A stretch of DNA of 62,897 bases, counting the filler, from Reclinomonas americana ATCC 50394 (Eukaryota): NCBI GenBank assembly GCA_048213135.1. It is 11 parts of 11 records of this genome, joined end to end, with 100 filler letters (N's around TTAATTAATTAA, not from the genome) between each part and the next. Parts side by side here need not be neighbours in the genome. Positions count along the whole stretch, not along the records: positions 6,115 to 13,166 come from AFZH01019569.1; 10 more parts are not named here. One strand, 5' to 3'. Every line of letters starts with the position of its first letter. The stretch's first letter is position 1. Under the pieces are notes generated by a model. That model saw only the letters and a program-made list of their open reading frames with translations, was not told the origin of the DNA and made no database searches. Shown here piece by piece: positions 6,015-54,770 of the stretch. The position numbers and the translations under genes are program-made.

Positions 6015-6114
6015 NNNNNNNNNNNNNNNNNNNNNNNNNNNNNNNNNNNNNNNNNNNNTTAATTAATTAANNNNNNNNNNNNNNNNNNNNNNNNNNNNNN
6101 NNNNNNNNNNNNNN
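6015..6114. other. Artificial contig-joining linker N44-TTAATTAATTAA-N44
   Basis: Identical 100-nt linker with stops in all six frames. It recurs at 13167-13266, 22481-22580, 32144-32243, 41747-41846, 44271-44370, 48098-48197, 53760-53859, 57312-57411 and 61019-61118. Confidence 0.98.
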
Positions 6115-6468
6115 TTATATGGTTGCTCGCTGTTACATTTTGTTCTGTCCACCCCGACTGTTAGAACCGTTACACCCGTGTCCGGAAAAATTTCTTTTCT
6201 CGACAACGGCGAATCACTGCCGGGAAAGGAAAAAAACACCGGAAAGCGCACCGCGTGCGCTTTCGATAGATGCCTTTTCCGTGACATGATCAAAAAATTT
6301 CGCGGCGCACCACTCGACGTAAACTTTGTGACCGCCGGCTGACGCTCTCAGCACCCAGCACCCCCTCCCTCTGCCGTGCGCGATCGTCGCAGGACAAGGT
6401 GAGCAAGCCGTGTACCCGACTTGTTTCACACGTTGCGGTGTTGTTGTGCGTCGGCACATGTCTGCCCC

Positions 6469-9400
6469 ATGTTTGCGTCCTCTCTCTGTGACCAACTTCT
6501 CTCCCGTTCTGCGCGACCTGTGACACCCCTCATCGTGCCGGCACGTTGCCGAAGGACTGTAGTGGTGGTGTACCCGCCTGAAACTCGTCGCTTCTGTCTC
6601 CTTCATGTGGTGTGGGTGTCACATTTTGTTCATCACGACTGGTGACTGATCAAAGTGCTGACATACAGATGCACCATGACGAGCTGCCTGCTACGGCCCA
6701 AGAGCTTCTCCACGACACAGGCACTTGCATGTCACTCTGTGATGTGTGCGAGCGCGCTGTCGTCGTCGGATCACGGGATCAGGCTGCCACAGCGGCCAAA
6801 CGCTTGACAGCCATGGGCATCGACTGCGCTCCTGGGTTCCTCGTCAGCTCGTCGCACTTGGAGCTTCTGGACGTCTACAACGATGTCGACACCCACCAGG
6901 AGTTTGCGCATGCGTCTGAGTGTGGGCTCAGCGCCGATGAGATCGAGTCATTCCTTGCCGTCGACTCGACAGGAATCCTCTCTCTCCGTGCCGGGCGCAC
7001 GCTGCCGAAGGTACCGCGTGCACGTGGAGACTCTGTGGCGTCGGCACGGTCCCCACTGGCGCAAGCCAAGTTTGTGGCTGTCCACGCCCATACACTGGAA
7101 ATGGCGGTTGCACGGGCCGTGGAGAGGTCCGAGCGCAATGAGGAAGATCCTTCTTCACCCGTGATCTGCTCGTCGTGCAAAACGAGGATGTATCGGGAAG
7201 CGCAGTATGCCGTGCGATGCGCGTGCGTCACTTGCCGCTGCTTCGTCCCAGCGAGCCGCCGACCACCGGACTCTCTCAAAGGAGGGCAGCGAGGACGGCG
7301 CAAGCGACATCTCCAGACAGTGCAAAGCACGCGACATCGCAAGAGGCGTCGGACAGGTGCTGCCACCTTCGATGCTGACGACGAGGATGACGATGACGAA
7401 GCCGAGGGCGTTGGCGGCGAGGGCGGTGACGAAGCCGAGGGCGTTGGCGGCGAGGGCGGTGACGACGCCGTGCGCAGGTCCACGTCGGCAGAACTCGCCT
7501 TTGTTTTCGGTGCCGCCGTACGCACGTTTGGTACGTATACTGTTGACCTGCTGCAGCCGCCCCGTCCAGCTGTCGTACAGCTCGCTTCTTGTGCTCACTG
7601 CTGCGTCGCCTCCACCCTTGCCAGGCGACGAAATACACATCGTCACCGAGGACGGTGTCGATGTGTTCTGTTCAAGTGACTGCAAACGCGAGTTTCTGGC
7701 AGCGCGTTTCCCTGCCGCCTCCAACCCCCGCATTCGCCGCCGTGCCACGGCTGCAGCTGAGAGCGACGCAGAGAGTGGTGACGATGCCGAGGCTTCAATG
7801 GCTAGTGCGGAAGACTCGGATGGCACAGGCGCGATGGTCGAGGATGAGACTGGTGGAGAGGAGGACGAGGAGGATGAGTCGTCGGTATGCTTGGCTCGTG
7901 TACGATGCTCGCTTCGCTGATCACTGGTACCAATGCATTTCTTGGTGCGCGCTTCTCTTGTCGCAGGATGAAGCTGTCTATCCCAATCCTCGACTAACGG
8001 CAGTGGACACAGCCGCGGTGAGCCGCCGGCGGCGCCGCAAGCCACTGGCTGCGATGAAGCCGGGCACCGAGGCGAGAATTATCAGAGAGAGAACGAGGGA
8101 GCTCCGACGTTCAATGAACAGTTTCGCGGAGAGGGTGCGGCACTCTCATGAACAGCGGCAGCAGGCACCTGCCGATGAAGAGGACGATGCTGCTGCCGCG
8201 CACCGAAGCCGTCTATCATTCGCTCTCCAGCTGGTGAGTTGCCGGCCTGCGCAGATAATATATGCCTTGTTCGGCAGCGCAGCTCAACTCGTGCCCGCCC
8301 TACATGCACACGCACAGATCGAAACCATGGACAAGAATTTTGTGCGACAGATACTCAATCCCGATCCATCCGAGTCGTTGGGCGATTCTGTGCCGGCAAT
8401 TGAGTACGAGAAACTGCGCTCGTTGCTCGTTGTCCTCGCGCAAGATCTGGTCAAGCTCACCCAACGAGTGAACTATGTGAACGAGGCGCTCGCCGTGTGC
8501 CGCAAGCAAGTACGCCAACTGTCAGACAAGTTATCGGGCATTGACAAGGCGAGGGAGCGCGCGATATATGACAAGGAGCATGGCATGACTTTGGAAGAGG
8601 GTGCGTGCTGACAGTCGCGCACACCCACACTCCTCGTCGTGATCATCGCCATTTCTGACGCCTGCTCTACAGCGGTGCATTTCCGCTATCAACTTCGGCT
8701 GCCTTGGTCTCTGTACACGTACATGCGAACTCTCCGGGCCATTGGTTTCTGTCTTCCGCCGGTGAAGCGTCTATTCGAATACGAAAAGTCTCTCCTGCCG
8801 CAACTGGGTGCAGTCGCAGAGAAACGGATCATCATCACCGACAGGAAGACAGCAAGAGCGCCGCCGAAGGTGGAAGAGATGCAACTCGCGTTTATCCAAC
8901 GGTTCCTGCAAAGGTTTGTCGGTAAAGCAGAATGATATCAGATGTCGCGAAGTCGTCACATGCATTTGTCAAATCTGGAGACTTACACTGCGTGCGCACT
9001 CGCGCCGCACATGTACAGGAGTGTGCTCGTGTTACGTTCGCCAGGAGGTGACGGAGGCGAGCACAGTGCACAGTGTCGCGCTGAGGAGTGCACCCATGGA
9101 CTCTTCGCTCTCGCAAATAAGGTGGTGGGACTGCGACCTCATCCCTCTGGCCGTTTGCAGCTGCGCATTGCCGCGGATTCTGGGATTGTTCCATCGAGAA
9201 CCTCCGCCTGTGATCTGCAGGACGACCGTGGCATGCGCACACTTACTGTTGAGACTCAATTACGCCTCCTTCAACTTTTCATCTTGACGGTAATTGGGCA
9301 TCCAACCACTCATTCGCCGGAGTCTGTGGCACTCATTGCAGTCGCGTTGATGTCGTCGGAGTCACTGGCTACCACCTTCGGTGCCGTGCGGTCGCTCCCG

Positions 9401-11777
9401 TGGACAGCTTGGGCTGACGCTTGGGAGAGGCATGTCAATGAATGCGCGCTACTGAGGAGCCGGTTTCCACAGGGTGTACAATACTTTATCGGGGGAGACC
9501 TCAAGACTCTCCAGGCGTTCCTCGGCCTGGGGCACTGTAGCTACTGTCCTTTTTGTTTGGCGAGGCACGCTTTGCTGTTTTGCGGAACATCTGCGTCGGC
9601 GAAGATGTGGTTCATGAGGTTCACTCGTCGCAGTCGTGATCTTGCCACGGACATGCACAACAGAGAGTACACCGTTGACTGCTGCTTTGACTTCGTGCTG
9701 AACTTGGACGAGATTATCGATGGGAAGCGGCACTGTACCCGAACGCTGTCGACGGCTCACGATGTGCTGCGACAGTTTCTGCTGTGGCAGGAATCTCTGC
9801 AAATGCCCGGTGCAACTAAAGATGACGACGACTACGCTAGATTCCGCAGCATTAGTGCTGTTGGCCCTGGGAATACGGCATGGCGTGCATTGAAGACAAT
9901 CATTTCATTCCCCGCGGATCACGCAGAGCGTCTCAAACTCTTGCTGTCTTCGTTTGTGCCTGATCAGCTGCATCTCGAAATCCGCGCTGCTGAGGCAGTG
10001 TTCGGAAAGCTGATGTCCCTCGGCTACATGACGCAGAAGGGCACCAATGCTCGTGTTGAGGGGCAACCTTGCATTCAGACAACTGTCGATGGCAGACCAA
10101 TGCCCAACACGTCGTACTTCAACAAGGCAGAGGAGTACGCACGCGACGCAACGGCTGCTTTCAAAGACTTGTGTGGCAAGAGGAACCATCTGCGGTACGT
10201 ATACGCCTTTTGTCTACACCAAGATCCATATCACTGTTCCATGTCTGTCACTCACTCGACGCCGACACTTAAGCACTTGCATGCACGCACGCACAGGTTT
10301 AAGGTGGAAAGTAAATTATCCGCGCGAGGGAGTGGGCCAGGTGGCTCCGGATCAGGCACCTTCAGGAGAGTAACAGAGGCCACTCGGGGAAGCAATCTCG
10401 CTGGTGCCGCACTCGACAATCTCCTCGAAAATTTCGAGCAAGAGAAGGTATGCCTGCCGTCGTGCATCGCGCTGTCCGTGTATGTATCCATTGTCGGGCG
10501 AATACATGTGTAACCATGGCCACAGGTGAAGGAGAGGATTATTGCACCATTCCTCAGCCACGAACCAGTACTTGTCGAAATATGTGCTACTTTCCTATCG
10601 GCTGTCAAATGCTACCGCAAATTACAGTGGCATGTGCGCCATGGTGACTGTAACGGCAACGAGTGGCCTTGCAACTACACCGAACAGCAACTGCTGCCGA
10701 GGCTGGAGCGATTCAAGAATTTGGGCTCGCAATTCTACAAGGCAGTGTTTCGTGCACACGAAGTCATCGGTGTCAATCCTGGTGAATTCATCTCCACCAG
10801 TGTTCACTTATAGTTGCGAGCAGCGGTTTCATACACGTTGTGTTTGTGGCGGTGGACGAACACTCACTGCGGTTCCTTCTGTTGTCACCTGCAGTCTGGA
10901 CCACCTGCCGCAGTTTTGCGTTGACAAACGATTTGCCTTCAACACACACGCACATAGCCAGTACGGGAATGAGCAGAAAGTCAAGCAGTGTCGGCCTGTG
11001 TTTGTTCACGGGCCGAATGCATCTCCTCCGACTCGCGCTGAAGAGGTCGACCACACTGATTGCTATCGTAGCAGGCTGTTGCATGAGGCTTTCTACTGTT
11101 CACTCGGTAAGCATCATATCCGTGTGTTTGCTCGTATGCAAGTAATCCGTGTACGTATACCAAGTGTGATTCTTGCGCACATGTTCAGAGAGCCCGCTAG
11201 TACCTGCAGCGCTAGCTGGCGTCGGCGTCGGTCATGATCGCATGATTATCAAGACCTTGCGCGACGATACGAGTCCTTATATGCCCTCGAGCTCGCGACA
11301 GGCCGATCGCGACAAGAACTCGGACGATGAGGACTTGGATTCATGGCGGGAGGCAGCTCAGTGTGAGCACGATGCGAGGCAGGAGGAGCTTGAGCGGGCT
11401 GCGGAGCGACATAGTCTTGCACTCTCGTCTGTGCATGTACCGCAAACACATGTGCACGCGGCCACCGATGGAGAAGATCTTGAGGACGCCGAGGCGCCGG
11501 CTCCCGAAGTCGACGCTGTACCGCAAGGGAAGCGCAGTTTCGTTTGAGCGATTCGCTGCATCGAACCTTATTGGTGTCTGCTCTGACATGTACGCGCGCT
11601 GCGGCTATCTGCGCAGTGCGATCCAGCATAAAACACCAGATTGCGCATAGCATGGCGATTCTAACAACGACATGTCCGGAAGTCGTGCCCCAAGTGGAGA
11701 AGAATCGGGAGACGCGACAGAAGAATCGTTCAAAGGAGTTGATGGATCTGGATCCGGAGCAACAGGATCCACAGTGA
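6469..11777 (+). CDS. RAG1-like DDE transposase/recombinase, 12 exons, ~1467 aa
   Basis: Phase-compatible GT-AG exons: 6469-6609, 6669-7477, 7557-7884, 7967-8233, 8318-8600, 8673-8913, 9019-10194, 10297-10447, 10526-10812, 10895-11106, 11189-11536, 11617-11777. Motifs occur in RAG1 order: RRKPLAAM..RERTRELRRSMNSFAE, LPPVKRLFEYEKSLLP, LRIAADSG, GGDLK..CPFC, PDQLH, VHLYLDHLP, SQYGNEQK. The first and last exons are less certain. Confidence 0.85.
7395..7460 (+). repeat. Perfect 33-bp tandem duplication (DEAEGVGGEGG x2) in the acidic linker of the transposase
   Basis: GACGAAGCCGAGGGCGTTGGCGGCGAGGGCGGT repeated twice, in frame. Confidence 0.95.
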
Positions 11778-11860
11778 GATGGCATTCAGCGAGTTCATCA
11801 TCTTTTCCAATACAAAAAACACACGCCAAGAGACTACACACCACATACACATCACATCTG

Positions 11861-13030
11861 TCAACGGGCCTTCGTCACCACTCGGAAAGACACGAGGAGA
11901 ACCCTCGGCTTCGCCTTGTACGTCAGAACAAGTGGCGCAGAGTCGTCCACAGCACAAACGGAGAACTTGGATTGCAGCAAAAACCACTGCCGTCCGAGTG
12001 CGGCTTCCAGAGCATCGCTGGACGCCGGGCTCTCCACTTTTTCGCGCAAATCGCAGCATGGCCACCTAGGTCGGTACGTCTCCTCGGCATCTGGAAGCGC
12101 ATCGCGGAAAAGATGCAACACGGCGGCGAACGCGACACAGTTCAACTTGAAACCACGATCAGGCGGGGCGAATTTCACCTTCAACACCTGGCGCAGCACC
12201 CGCATAAAGCGCCGCTTCAGGTCGTTTGACAAGTCTTGGAGCAGGGCATAGTGATGGCGGTTCGCCTGGAGGGTGGGGAGAGAGAGAGGGAGGGGGGGGG
12301 TGGACGACATTAGCCCGCCGGCACGTACGTATCGCGACTGGCAGGCACGCTCACGTAAAGAATAGCCAAGAAGAGATGATAGGTGCCTTCCCTCGCGTCT
12401 GGGCCAAACGACACTCGCATCACTGCATTGGGAAGGGTATGGGGGGCTGGGGCAGGTCGTAACAAGACTGATCTTGTGGGGATGGACTCACGCACGTTCC
12501 ATGGGGTTGCAGGCGACTGTGACGTCGGTGTTCACAGCCACTGCCGCAGTGGCCACTCGCTTCGCCGTTGGAGTGCGCCTCACGCTGGGGCGTCGGCGCG
12601 GTTGACGCGCTTGGACTCGGCGGGCGTCGTCGATTTCCATCGATATCGACGCGCCGCTCTCATCGTCACTCTGATTGTGATGGAGATCACTCGCGAGTTC
12701 ATCATTGGCGGAGACCACAGGCTCGAGCCCCGCATGTGGTGCCTGGGAGAGAGAGGGAGAGAGGGAGAGAGGGAGACAACGAGGAAGTGAGTTCGCGCGC
12801 TGATGTCATTCAACACAAATCTTCCGTCACCAACTCACGCGCGCAGATGCTGCTTCGTCGCTGCCACGAGATGAAAAGCTTGAGCGTCGTGACCTACTGC
12901 GACGGGGCACACGCGCTGCTTGCGGAAGGCCGCGTGAGTCACCGAGATCAAACTCGGCGAAGCGGCGTCGCAGCTGGGCGGCGCGCTGTTGTGTCCAGCC
13001 CTGCCGTCTCGATCTAGTCGCACGCTCCAT
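11861..13030 (-). CDS. Unknown 303-aa protein, 4 exons, convergent partner of the RAG1-like transposase
   Basis: Exons 13030-12839, 12742-12496, 12422-12355 and 12265-11861, with GTGAGT/GTGCGT/GTGAGC donors and pyrimidine-rich CAG acceptors, join into a 912-nt open frame. The N-half is basic/disordered and the C-half is predicted globular. Confidence 0.72.
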
Positions 13031-13271
13031 GAATTGAGCTACACTCTGGCGAAGCGGCGGCGCGTGTGCACAAGGAATGACCGAGAACGACGTGCGTCAC
13101 TAGAGTGGGGTGCAATTTTCAGGCGGGAAATGACCGAAAAATTTCCCATTGGAGAGCAACGGCATANNNNNNNNNNNNNNNNNNNNNNNNNNNNNNNNNN
13201 NNNNNNNNNNTTAATTAATTAANNNNNNNNNNNNNNNNNNNNNNNNNNNNNNNNNNNNNNNNNNNNTCTTT

Positions 13272-16272: not shown

Positions 16273-19200
16273 ATGTATCAGTATTATGAGAGCGAAGACG
16301 GCGATGGCGACGATGCCGTGAGCCTGTGGTCCTCTTCCTCTTTCGCCTCGTCATCGTCATCGTCGGCGGCAACACTGACCTTTTGTTGCGCACCAAGGGC
16401 GACGTTTCTGTCAAAACAGTCTCTGATCGCCTGACATGCATGCACAGATGAGAGCGGTGAGGTGATTGCATCGCCAGCTGCTGCTGCTGCTGCTGCTGCT
16501 GCTGCAGAGCCAGTGTCATCACCGCCGCCAACACCACCATTGCGCGAAGAAGAAGCAGAAGATCGACATCGTGATTGGAATGCCGAGTTTCAGGTGGCGT
16601 TGGACGCGTTGCTGGCCGCCGTGCGACCGGTGCAGGCCACTCCCGATGAGCATGTGCGGCGCTTGGCGGCGGTGCATCGTGTGGTGACGGCGTTCCGGGA
16701 GGCGGCGCGGCAGCATGCGCGGACGATTGTGTTGGAGCTGGCGGTGGAGCCACCGGAGGCGCGTTCGATTCCTCCGGCGCGCTCTGTGGGTGGTGTGGCT
16801 GGTGGTGTCAAGGTGCGACGTCGTTTCTCTATTGTTTTTTGGCTTGAAGTGCTGATGGATGGCGCTGGGAGCACAGTACATGGTCGACAACATATTCTTC
16901 AAGCTCGTGCGCGACCACACAGGTATGCTGTATGGCAGTGATCGTGAGGTGAGTGTGGTTGCTGTGCTGACTGTCGCTGAAGTGCTTCCTGACCATCTCG
17001 TGCGTGTGTACAGGCCATGAAGGCGGCCAGTCAAGAGATGACTGTTGCGTGTGGACTGGATCGCCTTTGCCCGCAGCGACGTGAGACAGTGGACTGACTG
17101 CTGCGCGTGTGCAGGGAATGGCGTCGTACTTGCTGGCTAATGTGTCACGCTTGCGCACGCCTCTCATGACCATGAGTTGCGTGGTGGACAAGGAGTAGGT
17201 TTCGTGCTTGTTTTTCTCTGACTCTCTCTCCTGCAGTCGACTTTCTCGGATATCGCATCATTGCATCTACGGTGTTGCCGCTCTCCGGCGACACACTGGT
17301 GTACGGCTCTGGTGACGGTGGCCGTACGGTGTTGGCCGACCCGGAGGTGTCTGCGTTGATGGAGGAGGCCGCGTGCTCCATCAATCTCAAGCGGCACGGC
17401 GCTGGTCGCGAAGGTTCGGATCGTTGCCCGTCAGCGCGCAGTCACTTGCTAACCTCCTGCACAGGTGTTCCACTCTGGGCTCCGTGCGACATTGAAGTGC
17501 ATCGCGCACTCGACGGGCGGTTCTACGTCTTGGACACGGCGTGCGTCATTGGTTTCTTCGCTGCGAATCCATGTTGTTGTTGGCACTCACGCCTCTCGAC
17601 CATGCCAACACAGGCGTGTTTTCCCACCAGTGCCATCCCTCGATGGAGGTACAGTGCTCCTCCTTTGTGCCTCGTCTCTTGCCGTGCTGACTCTGTGCGG
17701 CAGAGAATGTGTCGCTGGTGCGTGTGCCGGCGACGGTGACCGACGACGGCCTCGAGGTGCTGCCGTCGGTGCCCAGCCGAGACATCGGTCGCGTGATCAG
17801 TGCACTCTTTGGTAGCACCGAGCGAGCTGAGCGCGTGGCCGTCACCCGCGACACACTGGTGTTTTTTGACCGACAGGCTACCGTCAAGGTGAATGCCTAC
17901 AGCCGTTGTGCAGCATGGATGCATAGCACGTGCACCTCATGTGTATGTTCTGGTGCAGAACGACCGTGTGGCCACGCTGCTCAACATACCAGCTGAGCAT
18001 GCAGTGCGAGGGCTCGCTTTGGTGGTCACTCGGTGAGCACAAGAGTTGGTGCGCCATGGTAACGGGCGGTAGACTCATACGCTTTCATTTTCAGCAATCC
18101 TGGCCAGCATCTGACCCACTTGTTCCGGCCCGAGTTTGTCAGCTCCAATCCAGTCCCGCTCTCCTCCGATGCCTACACAGGTGCGCGCCATACCACTCGT
18201 GTGTGTGTGAAAGAGAGAGAGAATCTGCATGGGCTCAATCACTATATAATAATAGGCTTCGGAGCACATCAAGCTGCCGAGAACAATGCTGAAGTCGCGG
18301 AGGCACGTCGGCGTTTGCTGGACACGGTGATTCCGCAGCTGGTCGCCGATATGGCTTCCGGGCGAGTGTATCCCACCAACAGGTGCGGTGTCTCTCACTC
18401 CGTGGGAACAAAATCACGTTGCCGACGCATGCCTCCTCCAGCGAACAGCTCCGTGCGGCACTGCATCAACGCGGAGTCAACATGCGCTACATGGGAGTCA
18501 TTCGCACCATGCTGGATCATCCTGTTGGCTCCGACCACCCCATGCGTGTCGAGCTACTCACCGAGATGCTTGCGCGTCTGGCCAAGACCCAGTTGCGAGA
18601 TGAGCTTCGACGTGTGCATAGCAGCGACATTCAGGTGTACAGGTGCGTTTGTGCATTCCTCTCTGTGTCTTTCACTTGGCGCAGACGAGCTAATCTGGGC
18701 TTCCTCGCACCAGGCGCCACATTGTTGCGTTTTTCAATCTGATTTTTGGAAGGTCGGCGGCCTCCGACTACATGTGGCAAGGTGCGTAAGACGCAATGTG
18801 TGTGGCATGTCCCACGCATCACTCGCAGCTAATGCACTTACCAGAACGACTCTACTTTGCCGTACTGGAACGATACGGACGTTTCGGGACGGTGTTCACG
18901 GAGCTGGATCAGACTCGGCATCTGCATGTCGACATGCGTCTCAACACCAAGGTGGGTGTCGGTGGCGCCTGTTGTGCTTCTTTTGTTGCTGACAGACTGC
19001 TGCAGCTGCCTCGACTGCTGGATGCACTCGAGTATCACTGTGGCGTCGTGTTTTCGCATCGTGCACACCAGCTCCTCTCCAGTGTGACGCCAGAGACGCC
19101 CACTCCGCTGGCAGAGGAAGGTGTGCGACCAAGGCGTTCTTTTGGTAGTCTCTGTGCGCACGCTCACCGCAGTGTTGCGCAGATTTGCTGTTGGTGGTCC

Positions 19201-51100: not shown

Positions 51101-53759
51101 GAACACACACCATCGATGCTGCTGGCCTCCGGTTCGCACATGAGATGGTACTCGTGGAACAAGTTGGCAAAGGCGACCTCGGGTGGCAGGGCCGGGAAAC
51201 TCCCACTGCTTGGTTCTTCCCGCTGCAGACACACACACACGCGAGAAGAATTGGCAACGAGGGATATTATGAGGAAAAATGCAGAGCGGGGCAAGCGCAC
51301 CGGTGCACTCTGCAACAGAGACATGCTCATGCGCGCCGGCAGCGACTTCATGTACTCGGGCGAAGCCACATCAGCGAGCTGGTCAACCATCGACGTCGAC
51401 GACTCTGGGCAAACAAGGCCAGTGAGTCACCTGTTCCGTGTGCGACCCACGGCAACACAACGTCGCAACTGTGCTTGCCGCGCGGTACGCGTTTAGGACT
51501 CCCCACAGCAGCTGCCGCCGCTGTGGTGGCTGACGCAGCAGCCGTGGATGCGGCCGACGACTGTCATGACGAGCGAGTGAGCAACGACCATAACACCGAC
51601 AGATAAAACATGTACGCAACAATACCCGGCACCACCTCGGGCTCCGCGGCGGTGCAAAACTCGACGCACAGACGAATGACCCGCTCCACCATGTCGTGGC
51701 TCGCCCACTCGACAGCGAAATCAGCACATCGATGCAAGTCGCGCAGCCACAATTCGCTGGTGTTCTCCACTGCAACCACACGGGTGAGCTGGTGGACAAA
51801 GTGTGTGTAAGCAAAGAGGGGGTCGCAACTGAGTGGACGCCACTGTGGATCCTTGGCCAGCGACTCGATCACGCGGAACAGGAGCGCAAACTGCAACTCA
51901 TTTTGCTTGTACAGGAGTTGTGCGCGCCCGGGAGACCGGTCGTTGACCTCGCTCAGCTGTAGCAGCGAATTCAAGTACAGGCCGACCAGCACCTGTGCGC
52001 AACCCATGAGAACACGAGAAGGGAGAGAGAGAAGGGAGAGAAGGAGTGGGAGAAGGGAGAGAGAGAAGAAAGAGAGAGAGAAGGGAGAGAGAAGGGGAGA
52101 GAGAAGGGAGAAAGAAGTGAGTGAGAAAGCACATAGACGCTGACATCTCATCTCCCTCGTCAGTTACTTTTGCACACACACAAACGCGCGCACACACAAC
52201 GAGAGAAAAAATGAAAGGAACAGAAAGCACACAACGCTGACATCTGCATCTCTCTCGTCAAGCACATTAACTCACACAAACGAGAGAGAAGGGAAAGAGA
52301 AAGAAACAGAGATAGCACATAAACGCTGACATCTGCATCTCTCCTGTCAAGCACATTAACACACACAAATGAGAGAGAAGGGAAGGGGAAAGTGACAGAG
52401 AGAGCACACAAACGCAGACCTCTGCATCTCACCTGTCAAGCACATTAACACACACAAACGAGAGAGAAGGGAAGGGGAAAGAGACAGAGAGAGCACACAA
52501 ACGCAGACCTCTGCATCTCTCCTGTCAAGCACATTAACACACACAACCGAGAGAGAAAGAGACAGAGATAGCACTCAACGCTGACATCTGCATCTCTCTT
52601 GTCAGTTACTTTACACCTTCAAACGAGAGAGAAGGGAAGAGAAAGAGACAGAAAGCACACAAACGCTTACATCTGCATATCTCTTGCATACATATTTTCA
52701 CACACTCACGCACACGCACGTGAGCGGCAACATACCTGCAGTGTCCAGCACGCGCCACGACGATGACCGAGGAAATGCAGAGCTGGTGAGCAGCGCGGCG
52801 AAACGCCGGCTATCTTGTCCGTGGCCAGCGCTGCTCACACCACCGCTCTGAGGACAAGCAAACAATAGTGCGAAAAAGACAAGCCACACACACCAACAGC
52901 ATGCAGCCACACGTTGGCGCGCGGGTCGAGTGCATACACTGTCGAGGACTTGAACGGGGGAAGCACAGATGTTGCCACATGTCCGCGCATACACAGCCAG
53001 CCGCGAATCTGCAAGGCATACAGCTGCGGGGCACGAGGCGGGGTGAGACGGCAATTTACAGCACGCGCAAGAAAATTCTCTGCCACACACCTCCCGGTAG
53101 AGAGCACTCGGCGGGCATTCGCAGAGACAACTGAGCACCACCGACGACAATGGAGTGCCGACCATGTGGGGAGCATCGGGTCGCAGGGTTGACACGTCGA
53201 CTGCAAAAGGGAATACGGCATGTCACACGGAGTGCATCACAGCATGAACTCACATAATTAGAGAGAGAGAGAGAGAGAGACATGCACACACACGCATGCG
53301 GAGAGAGAGAGAGAGAGAAACGCATGCGGAGAGAGAGAGAGAAACGAGCGCATGTACTCAGACGCACACATAGGCATACCCAGCTCTGCGCACACACATA
53401 CACACACAAAGAGAGAGACAGGCAGTAGAGAGACGCACGCACGCACGCACACACACACGCATGCACACACACGCACACAGAGGTATATCCAGCTCTATCG
53501 CTCTCTTCCTCTTTCTCTCTCTCTCTCTCTCTCAGGCATACCATCATCCTCCTTCAAACTCAGATGGCACATGACGGCCAAAATGCGTTGCTGTAGAGGC
53601 GATAATGACAAGTAGCAGGTGGCCACGGCATCGGCCGGGGTCACCATCTTGTCAATGGTGTCTAATCGGTGCAGCACACTGCCACTCATGTGCGACAAGA
53701 GCAGGTGACGGGAGAGCAGGCTCTGCACAAACGAAGCCGATCCGTCGTCCATGGAAAGC
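48198..53759 (-). CDS. Large helical protein with TPR (kinesin-light-chain-like) repeats, partial
   Basis: Many short exons with TPR-like units (CLESRQRHLGLTHASVAEALL, YAKALHNCAVILFARGRFEDCQDMFRQC). The exon structure was not fully resolved. Confidence 0.55.
52136..52690. repeat. Intronic minisatellite, ~7 copies of a ~75-100-bp unit
   Basis: Recurring AACGCTGACATCTGCATCTCTCCTGTCAAGCACATTAACACACACAAACGAGAGAGAAGGGAA core. Confidence 0.9.
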
Positions 53760-54340: not shown

Positions 54341-54770
54341 TCAGAGAGAGGGGCGTGTGCTTGCGTGCGTACGTGTGTGTGTGCGTGCGTACGTGTGTGA
54401 ATGACCAAGACTGGGGACAGTGCGTGATTGAGGACACGAGGACGGTATTTCTTCTTGTTTTCTTTTGTTTTGTTGTTTCTCAAGGTGTGTGACGATTGTA
54501 TCAGAGAGAGGGGCGTGTGCATGCGTACGCGTGTGCGTGTGTGCGTCAATGAGCAAGACTGGGGACAGTGAGTGATTGAGGACATTTCTTGTTTTTTATT
54601 TTCTTTTTTGTTTTTTCTAATGGTGTGTGACGATTGTATCAGAGAGAGGGGCGTGTGCGTGCGTACGTGTGTGTGAGCAAGACAGGCAGACAGGGGACAG
54701 TTCGAGATTGAGGACACGAGGACGATTCTTGTTTTTCATTTGTTTTTTTCGATGGTGTGTGACGATTGTA
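54341..54770 (+). repeat. Three tandem ~130-160-bp units ending in the CRIPT start sequence
   Basis: Units 54341-54500, 54501-54638 and 54639-54770 each run TCAGAGAGAGGGGCGTGTGC...GGGGACAG..GATTGAGGACA...GGTGTGTGACGATTGTA. Confidence 0.9.

Follow-up and report, generated by a model that had tools for sequence, protein, structure and literature searches.

Within a stretch of 62,897 bases of Reclinomonas americana ATCC 50394 DNA (hereafter referred to as the window), a single contig (6115-13166, AFZH01019569.1; 7,052 bp, G+C about 55%) carries two genes that face each other tail to tail, a large transposase-like gene on the plus strand and a smaller partner gene on the minus strand, with nothing else recognisable beside them. 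The partner is very probably a real, spliced and lineage-specific protein-coding gene, and its 303-residue product is an orphan that is not RAG2-like. Our preferred explanation, held tentatively and with somewhat less than even confidence, is that a cut-and-paste DNA transposon with two genes, or a locus that has recently arisen from such an element, includes the partner as its second gene. The product would act as an accessory factor of the element's transposase, itself a presumed, very divergent representative of the CMCT (CACTA/Mirage/Chapaev/Transib) clade. It is by inference that we place both genes in one element and assign any interaction or function to their products.

The partner coding sequence (CDS) occupies positions 11861-13030 of the minus strand. 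In agreement with the first-pass annotation, which had described a four-exon gene for 303 residues on the strand opposite the transposase, its exons (13030-12839, 12742-12496, 12422-12355 and 12265-11861) join into a CDS of 912 nt that encodes 303 residues followed by a stop codon (11863-11861), and all four peptides quoted at that time are found in the product. The intervening introns on the same strand (12838-12743, 12495-12423 and 12354-12266, with lengths of 96, 73 and 89 nt) read GTGAGT..CAG, GTGCGT..CAG and GTGAGC..CAG, respectively; each of them contains an in-frame stop, and two of the three have a long C/T tract before the CAG. In a spliced open reading frame (ORF) test, which sought the longest CDS obtainable with at most three introns of 60-110 nt of the form GT[AG]NG[TC]..YAG and used 60 dinucleotide shuffles for comparison, the minus strand allowed up to 334 codons, the plus strand no more than 110 and the shuffles 124 ± 40 (maximum 250), with none of the latter attaining 303 codons. 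A codon score trained on the usage of the neighbouring transposase-like gene and of an ORF with a CLU domain on the next contig ranked the annotated frame highest among all six (0.153 bits per codon overall), with a particularly clear preference in exon 4 (0.176 bits per codon versus at most 0.024 in the other frames). The partner introns match those of the transposase-like gene in size (73-96 nt versus 72-105 nt), and the two genes are also alike in their position-specific base composition, with a G+C content at third codon positions (GC3) of 0.65 for the partner and 0.61 for the transposase-like gene; both likenesses count in favour of a two-gene transposon.

These data bear on the possibility that the ORF is not a functional gene and instead constitutes a decayed or mis-modelled frame, composed of pseudo-exons in GC-rich sequence, explained by antisense transcription of the 3' flank, or real in its last 156 codons only. 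The codon score does not clearly resolve the frame of exons 1 and 2, and a second model, which uses a donor at 12491 and retains intron 3 to give 334 residues, is also self-consistent; both observations would be compatible with such an artefact. By contrast, the failure of all shuffles to reach 303 codons, the low value of the plus strand, the three introns with their in-frame stops, strong GT..YAG signals and C/T tracts, and the frame preference in exon 4 speak against it, so that we consider it improbable. Between the two splice models, we prefer the one for 303 residues because intron 3 has a C/T-rich tract and a CAG like intron 1, and the two mutually exclusive forms could reflect alternative splicing. 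The minimal safe claim is that the last ~156 codons of the partner are coding.

The N-terminal half of the partner, encoded by exons 1 and 2 (12496..13030, minus strand, including intron 1), is rich in Arg, Ser, Ala and Asp. Residues 1-170 are of low complexity and contain 28 Arg, 25 Ala and 18 Ser, which bears out the Arg-rich N-terminal half described previously, and this composition suggests that the region is probably disordered. Exon 4 (11864..12265, minus strand; 134 residues) represents the best-supported coding part and contributes the bulk of a predicted alpha/beta C-terminal domain. As initially claimed, the partner is devoid of kelch repeats and a PHD finger: none of its four exons matched a kelch, PHD or RAG2 family in Pfam at E<=10. 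Its top Pfam match, GST_C_2, had an E value of 0.07, which is at noise level; NCBIfam held no family for it, and phmmer searches of the PDB returned nothing below an E value of 0.25. Searches at the level of whole protein collections were performed with exon 4. A full HMMER search over 1.84 billion representative proteins revealed no credible relative; its lone match (P0001, E 2.9e-7) was rejected as a repeat-inflated chance match, caused by a 28-residue stretch that occurs six times in a 935-residue repeat protein. A word-indexed search produced 80 candidates, with lengths of 114-364 residues only, none of them at E<=0.01. Relatives of the partner were also absent from the metagenome and viral contigs searched, and neither of the two genes has a paralogue within the window.

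Structural comparisons led to a similar picture. The single-sequence AlphaFold2 (AF2) model of exon 4 shows mixed helices and strands with a predicted local distance difference test (pLDDT) value of 61.7, compared with values of 35-39 for the other four of the five models. This low-confidence model is consistent with the mixed helical and beta C-terminal half proposed earlier, and it lacks the strands encoded by exons 2 and 3 because unjoined window sequence was modelled. Foldseek found no match to it in the PDB at E<=0.001, and in a VIA-align comparison with 48,161 chains, no Z score reached 5, the highest being 4.3. The ESM Atlas contained no usable match for the partner, whose recognition value (1528) was low. 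The absence of a relative and of a confident fold, together with this low recognition value, would again fit a non-functional reading frame.

The orphan status of the partner nevertheless carries little weight, because the transposase is equally undetectable and because, among 110 long ORFs on the ten remaining contigs, Pfam recognised just one at E<=1e-5, namely the CLU ORF (the count is based on 121 ORFs of at least 170 residues in the window, with the 11 on contig 6115-13166 excluded). It is equally uninformative with regard to the main competing explanation, according to which the partner belongs to the ordinary, lineage-specific genes of a host with a compact and poorly sampled genome, is unrelated to the adjacent transposase-derived gene (domesticated or resident) and faces it by coincidence, without any role in transposition. 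We regard this scenario as distinctly possible, although short of probable, and return to it below. Another finding, that Pfam and PDB sequence searches identified no DNA-binding or nuclease family in the partner, would be in line with a passenger, i.e. a gene captured by the element or born de novo within it that is dispensable for both cutting and pasting, similar to the TET/JBP genes of fungal CMCT elements. Extra genes are indeed repeatedly carried by fungal CMCT-clade elements, as described in the accessible part of one study (PMC12730594). As for the two-gene transposon, however, no copies were found in the collections searched or in the window, and we give the passenger scenario, which presupposes that the ORF lies inside an element, little credence.

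The gene opposite the partner (6669..11547, plus strand) is intact and encodes 1,399 residues in nine exons (6669-7530, 7625-7884, 7967-8233, 8318-8600, 8673-8913, 9019-10447, 10526-10812, 10895-11106 and 11189-11547), separated by introns that all follow the GT..AG rule. Its candidate catalytic core (9176..10973, plus strand), whose residues were picked by eye and without alignment to family members, comprises D691 (9176), D798 (9497), a CxxC motif at residues 814/817 (9545-9556), an HxxxxC motif at residues 1213/1218 (10902-10919) and E1236 (10971). The two Asp residues are 107 positions apart, compared with 108 in mouse RAG1; the CxxC motif starts 16 residues past the second Asp (19 in mouse RAG1), and the HxxxxC residues are located 23 and 18 residues ahead of E1236 (25 and 20 in mouse RAG1; residue numbers from the accessible part of PMC4914335). 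The distance between D798 and E1236, by contrast, amounts to 438 residues versus 254 in RAG1. An additional His pair is present at H1228-x-H1230. When the transposase was used in an ESM Atlas feature search, the highest-ranking clusters were those of RAG1 (best score 0.93), and nine of the ten best named matches shared the same family or clan; true family members usually exceed both its recognition value (1945) and its number of shared features (150). According to the available text of PMC12730594, all of the CMCT clade shares a D-D-E / C(2)C / H(3-4)H pattern. Based on language-model features and motif spacing, the label 'RAG1-like' should be taken as a lead, and the sequence suggests a candidate CMCT-clade DDE transposase that is possibly closest to RAG1/Transib. 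Its 525-residue ORF found no relative in a word-indexed collection of 5.8 billion proteins, either among the 8,000 scored candidates of 920-2,625 residues or among candidates of 288-919 residues, and none was detected in the metagenome and viral contigs searched. A more specific scenario, in which a RAG1-lineage transposase in a unicellular eukaryote independently recruited a small, non-kelch partner with a new fold, whose gene lies convergently within a single element shared with the enzyme and which either regulates cleavage or is required for it, appears unlikely to us.

Several further features of the transposase-like gene are worth recording. By eye, a possible intron in its 5' untranslated region (UTR) extends from GTGAGC at 6399 to CAG at 6668, just before the ATG at 6669; with ~270 nt (6399-6668), this putative intron would far exceed the coding introns in length. 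An in-frame tandem repeat of 33 nt (7394-7470; 2.3 copies, 97% identical), located where the N-terminal part of the protein is acidic and Gly-rich, resembles a recent expansion. In addition, there are N-terminal Cys clusters, with CxxC motifs at residues 24, 167 and 186 (region 24-190, about 6738-7240), and an H-x2-C-x7-H-x5-C arrangement after the candidate catalytic Glu (residues 1262-1278, about 11049-11099). Both may represent zinc fingers; neither matches a Pfam family.

The two genes are convergent, with stops at 11547 or 11777 on the plus strand and at 11861 on the minus strand, in accordance with the tail-to-tail layout noted at the outset. The gap of 83 bp reported at that time (11778-11860) applies only if the transposase-like ORF ends with the TGA at 11775-11777. 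This stop requires an extra intron (11537-11616, 80 nt) with a weak donor (GTTTCG) and a CAG acceptor, which would create an optional tenth exon. Without this intron, the ORF ends at 11545-11547, the stop that we prefer, and the region between the stops (11548..11860) then measures 313 nt. Both 3' UTRs must fit between the stops and probably overlap. A space of 83-313 nt leaves little room for a transposon end in addition to a foreign 3' UTR, which mildly favours a single unit and speaks against an unrelated neighbour. The statement that both genes start near the contig ends also holds, since the ATG of the transposase-like gene (6669) is 554 nt away from the contig start and that of the partner (13030) 136 nt from the other end.

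The termini of the contig offer additional hints. Of the 16 positions at the left terminus (6116..6131, plus strand), 11 match the reverse complement of the right terminus (13151..13166, minus strand), suggesting a possible short, imperfect terminal inverted repeat (TIR). In a comparison with 20,000 random pairs, this level of similarity has a P value of about 0.006, and it is the highest among the 11 contigs of the window, an observation that argues against an unrelated neighbour. A gapped local alignment starting within 4 nt of both ends scored 15.3, versus 9.2 ± 2.3 for random pairs, with 1% of 1,500 such pairs reaching 15.3. We reason that inverted look-alike termini would be expected if the contig was terminated by the assembler where a repeated element begins and ends. 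The observed terminal sequences are TTATATGG.. at one end and ..GGCATA at the other, and contig ends need not equal element ends. A further point against an unrelated neighbour is a rare 10-mer, RAAAAATTTC, that is common to both 5' regions. It occurs twice upstream of the transposase-like gene (6185-6194 and 6292-6301, plus strand) and a third time 106-115 nt upstream of the partner ATG (13136-13145, plus strand, antisense to the partner), and these are its only three matches in the 62.9 kb, where 0.06 would be expected. Two other candidates were rejected: an asymmetric TIR of 50-67 bp with spacers differing by 23 nt, seen by eye, failed statistical evaluation, with only the outer 13-16 nt standing out, and E2F-like TTTSSCGC sites near both 5' ends were not enriched in the window (11 versus 9.7 expected). 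The hints of a single mobile unit provided by this contig are weak, and some of them were picked post hoc.

Second ORFs of CACTA/EnSpm, Harbinger and RAG-like (RAGL) elements are known to act as accessory factors. It is tempting to speculate that, in a two-gene transposon of the kind we propose, each gene would be driven by its own promoter near one end of a ~7-kb unit and transcribed inwards. The basic, Arg/Ser-rich N-terminal half might take the small protein into the nucleus, where the alpha/beta C-terminal domain of ~170 residues could serve as an accessory factor by binding to the element ends or to the transposase, or by regulating the latter. The close convergent 3' ends, in turn, could give rise to overlapping antisense transcripts that dampen expression.

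A range of observations weighs against this explanation. Chance alone leads to convergence in one of four neighbouring gene pairs. Neither gene was found to have a second copy or a relative in the protein, metagenome and viral collections or in the window, and the intact and intron-rich state of both genes fits ordinary host genes equally well. At the contig termini, there is no CA or CAC start and no 5'-CA..TG-3' arrangement, and heptamers resembling those of recombination signal sequences (RSSs) are missing near the ends, with CACWGTG occurring only at 9062, 9069 and 11770. The terminal similarity is short, imperfect and noticed post hoc, and when 300-nt ends were compared under harsher scoring, the inverted match (16) fell below the shuffled mean (18.4 ± 2.4). 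The RAAAAATTTC motif was likewise picked post hoc and its three copies are direct rather than inverted, and the two 5' regions, when aligned without bias, showed no significant similarity (P about 0.16). Concerning the enzyme, Pfam contains no family that matches any exon of the transposase-like gene at E<=10, including the CMCT transposase families, and no NCBIfam family rises above noise. Phmmer searches of the PDB found no chain, RAG1 and Transib included, for the 525-residue ORF or for two motif-bearing pieces, and an AF2 model of the transposase ORF obtained without an alignment (pLDDT 32) provides no structural support. Chance convergence, intact genes with host-type introns, and the lack of canonical transposon ends combined with weak end similarities are all points in favour of an unrelated host gene, as is the fact that many other contigs likewise end in ordinary, non-repeat sequence. 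Given the narrow space between the stops, the inverted similarity of the termini and the shared 10-mer, we still prefer the two-gene transposon, at the tentative level indicated above.

As regards the wider setting, the window comprises 11 contigs of 1.8-9.6 kb, of which the one discussed here is the second, chained by N44-TTAATTAATTAA-N44 spacers (6015-6114, 13167-13266 and eight further sites). A contig-versus-contig comparison detected no sequence shared between any two of them, and Rfam and tRNA scans of the window gave no matches. The CLU (clustered mitochondria) domain ORF on the next contig is located at 17176-17736 on the plus strand (Pfam E 1.4e-19) and, together with the short GT..AG introns, identifies the source as eukaryotic. 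GA/CT-rich contigs contain tandem arrays with an 89-nt unit (5.5 copies) and with 132-138-nt units (2.2-2.4 copies) at 52213-52683 and 54406-54770, and several contigs terminate in TC, GA, CTC or AC microsatellites.

The usual account of how RAG1 and RAG2 came together invokes a single event, the capture of a gene for a kelch propeller by a Transib-like element early in the evolution of eukaryotes (PMC9435367 and the accessible part of PMC10462144). A RAG1-type enzyme travelling with an unrelated partner would imply that such transposases acquire cofactors repeatedly. If this partner was recruited independently, a RAG-type machine of two components would have been invented a second time, without connection to the first, and an unrelated partner would provide a natural comparison for the contribution of RAG2 to cleavage. 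Should the layout prove to be an accident of the neighbourhood, there would still be a very divergent, intact and intron-rich RAG1/CMCT-like gene from a poorly sampled eukaryote, with a bearing on the spread of this enzyme family among protists. Our aimed literature search, whose results were diffuse, found no paper describing a pair of a RAG1-like transposase and a non-RAG2 partner.

RAG2-like proteins are six-bladed kelch propellers, often with a C-terminal PHD finger. RAGL elements combine such a protein (RAG2L) with RAG1L; the two genes are convergent in the ProtoRAG element of amphioxus, and RAGL elements are also present in the protist Aureococcus anophagefferens (AanRAGL), whereas single RAG1L fragments without RAG2L have been reported for other early-branching eukaryotes (PMC9435367). 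The locus analysed here resembles these systems in its two convergent genes, as in ProtoRAG, in its large putative DDE enzyme with candidate D/D/E/CxxC/H residues spaced as in RAG1, and in its protist host, for which AanRAGL sets a precedent (PMC9435367). It differs from them in its partner, for which no kelch, PHD or RAG2 family was matched and whose folded part comprises at most about 175 residues. Moreover, there is no RSS-like CAC heptamer at the contig ends and no GRPR/K motif N-terminal to the core of the transposase-like protein, which is also missed by the RAG1 models in Pfam and by the RAG1/Transib chains in the PDB. The gene architecture is distinct as well, with nine and four exons in convergent orientation, unlike the single-exon, co-oriented genes of AanRAGL (PMC9435367).

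Transib elements are characterised by RSS-like TIRs and duplications of the target site (TSDs) that measure 5 bp. According to the accessible parts of two studies, they encode a single transposase of ~700 residues and no RAG2-like protein (PMC1131882, PMC10462144). The possible RAG1-type catalytic core constitutes a likeness to the locus described here, which is set apart by an enzyme of ~1,400 residues, a second gene and the absence of RSS-like TIRs at the contig ends.

The broadest frame of comparison is the CMCT clade, which comprises EnSpm/CACTA, Mirage, Chapaev, Plavaka, ESTA, Lanisha and Transib, most of them with 5'-CA..TG-3' termini and TSDs of 2-5 bp. In contrast to these elements, the contig described here lacks 5'-CA..TG-3' ends, its enzyme has HxxxxC in place of H(3-4)H as the candidate second zinc motif, and no Pfam transposase family of the clade matches the enzyme. 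As far as covered by the available part of PMC12730594, however, CMCT-clade elements commonly carry genes in addition to the transposase, and the ESTA lineage was recognised as RAG1-like only through profile methods. The locus in R. americana is similar in both respects, with a second gene beside its transposase and an enzyme that escapes family searches, comparable to ESTA. Seen against RAGL and CMCT-clade elements, a RAG1-like transposase with a non-RAG2 second gene beside it does not amount to a new kind of system.

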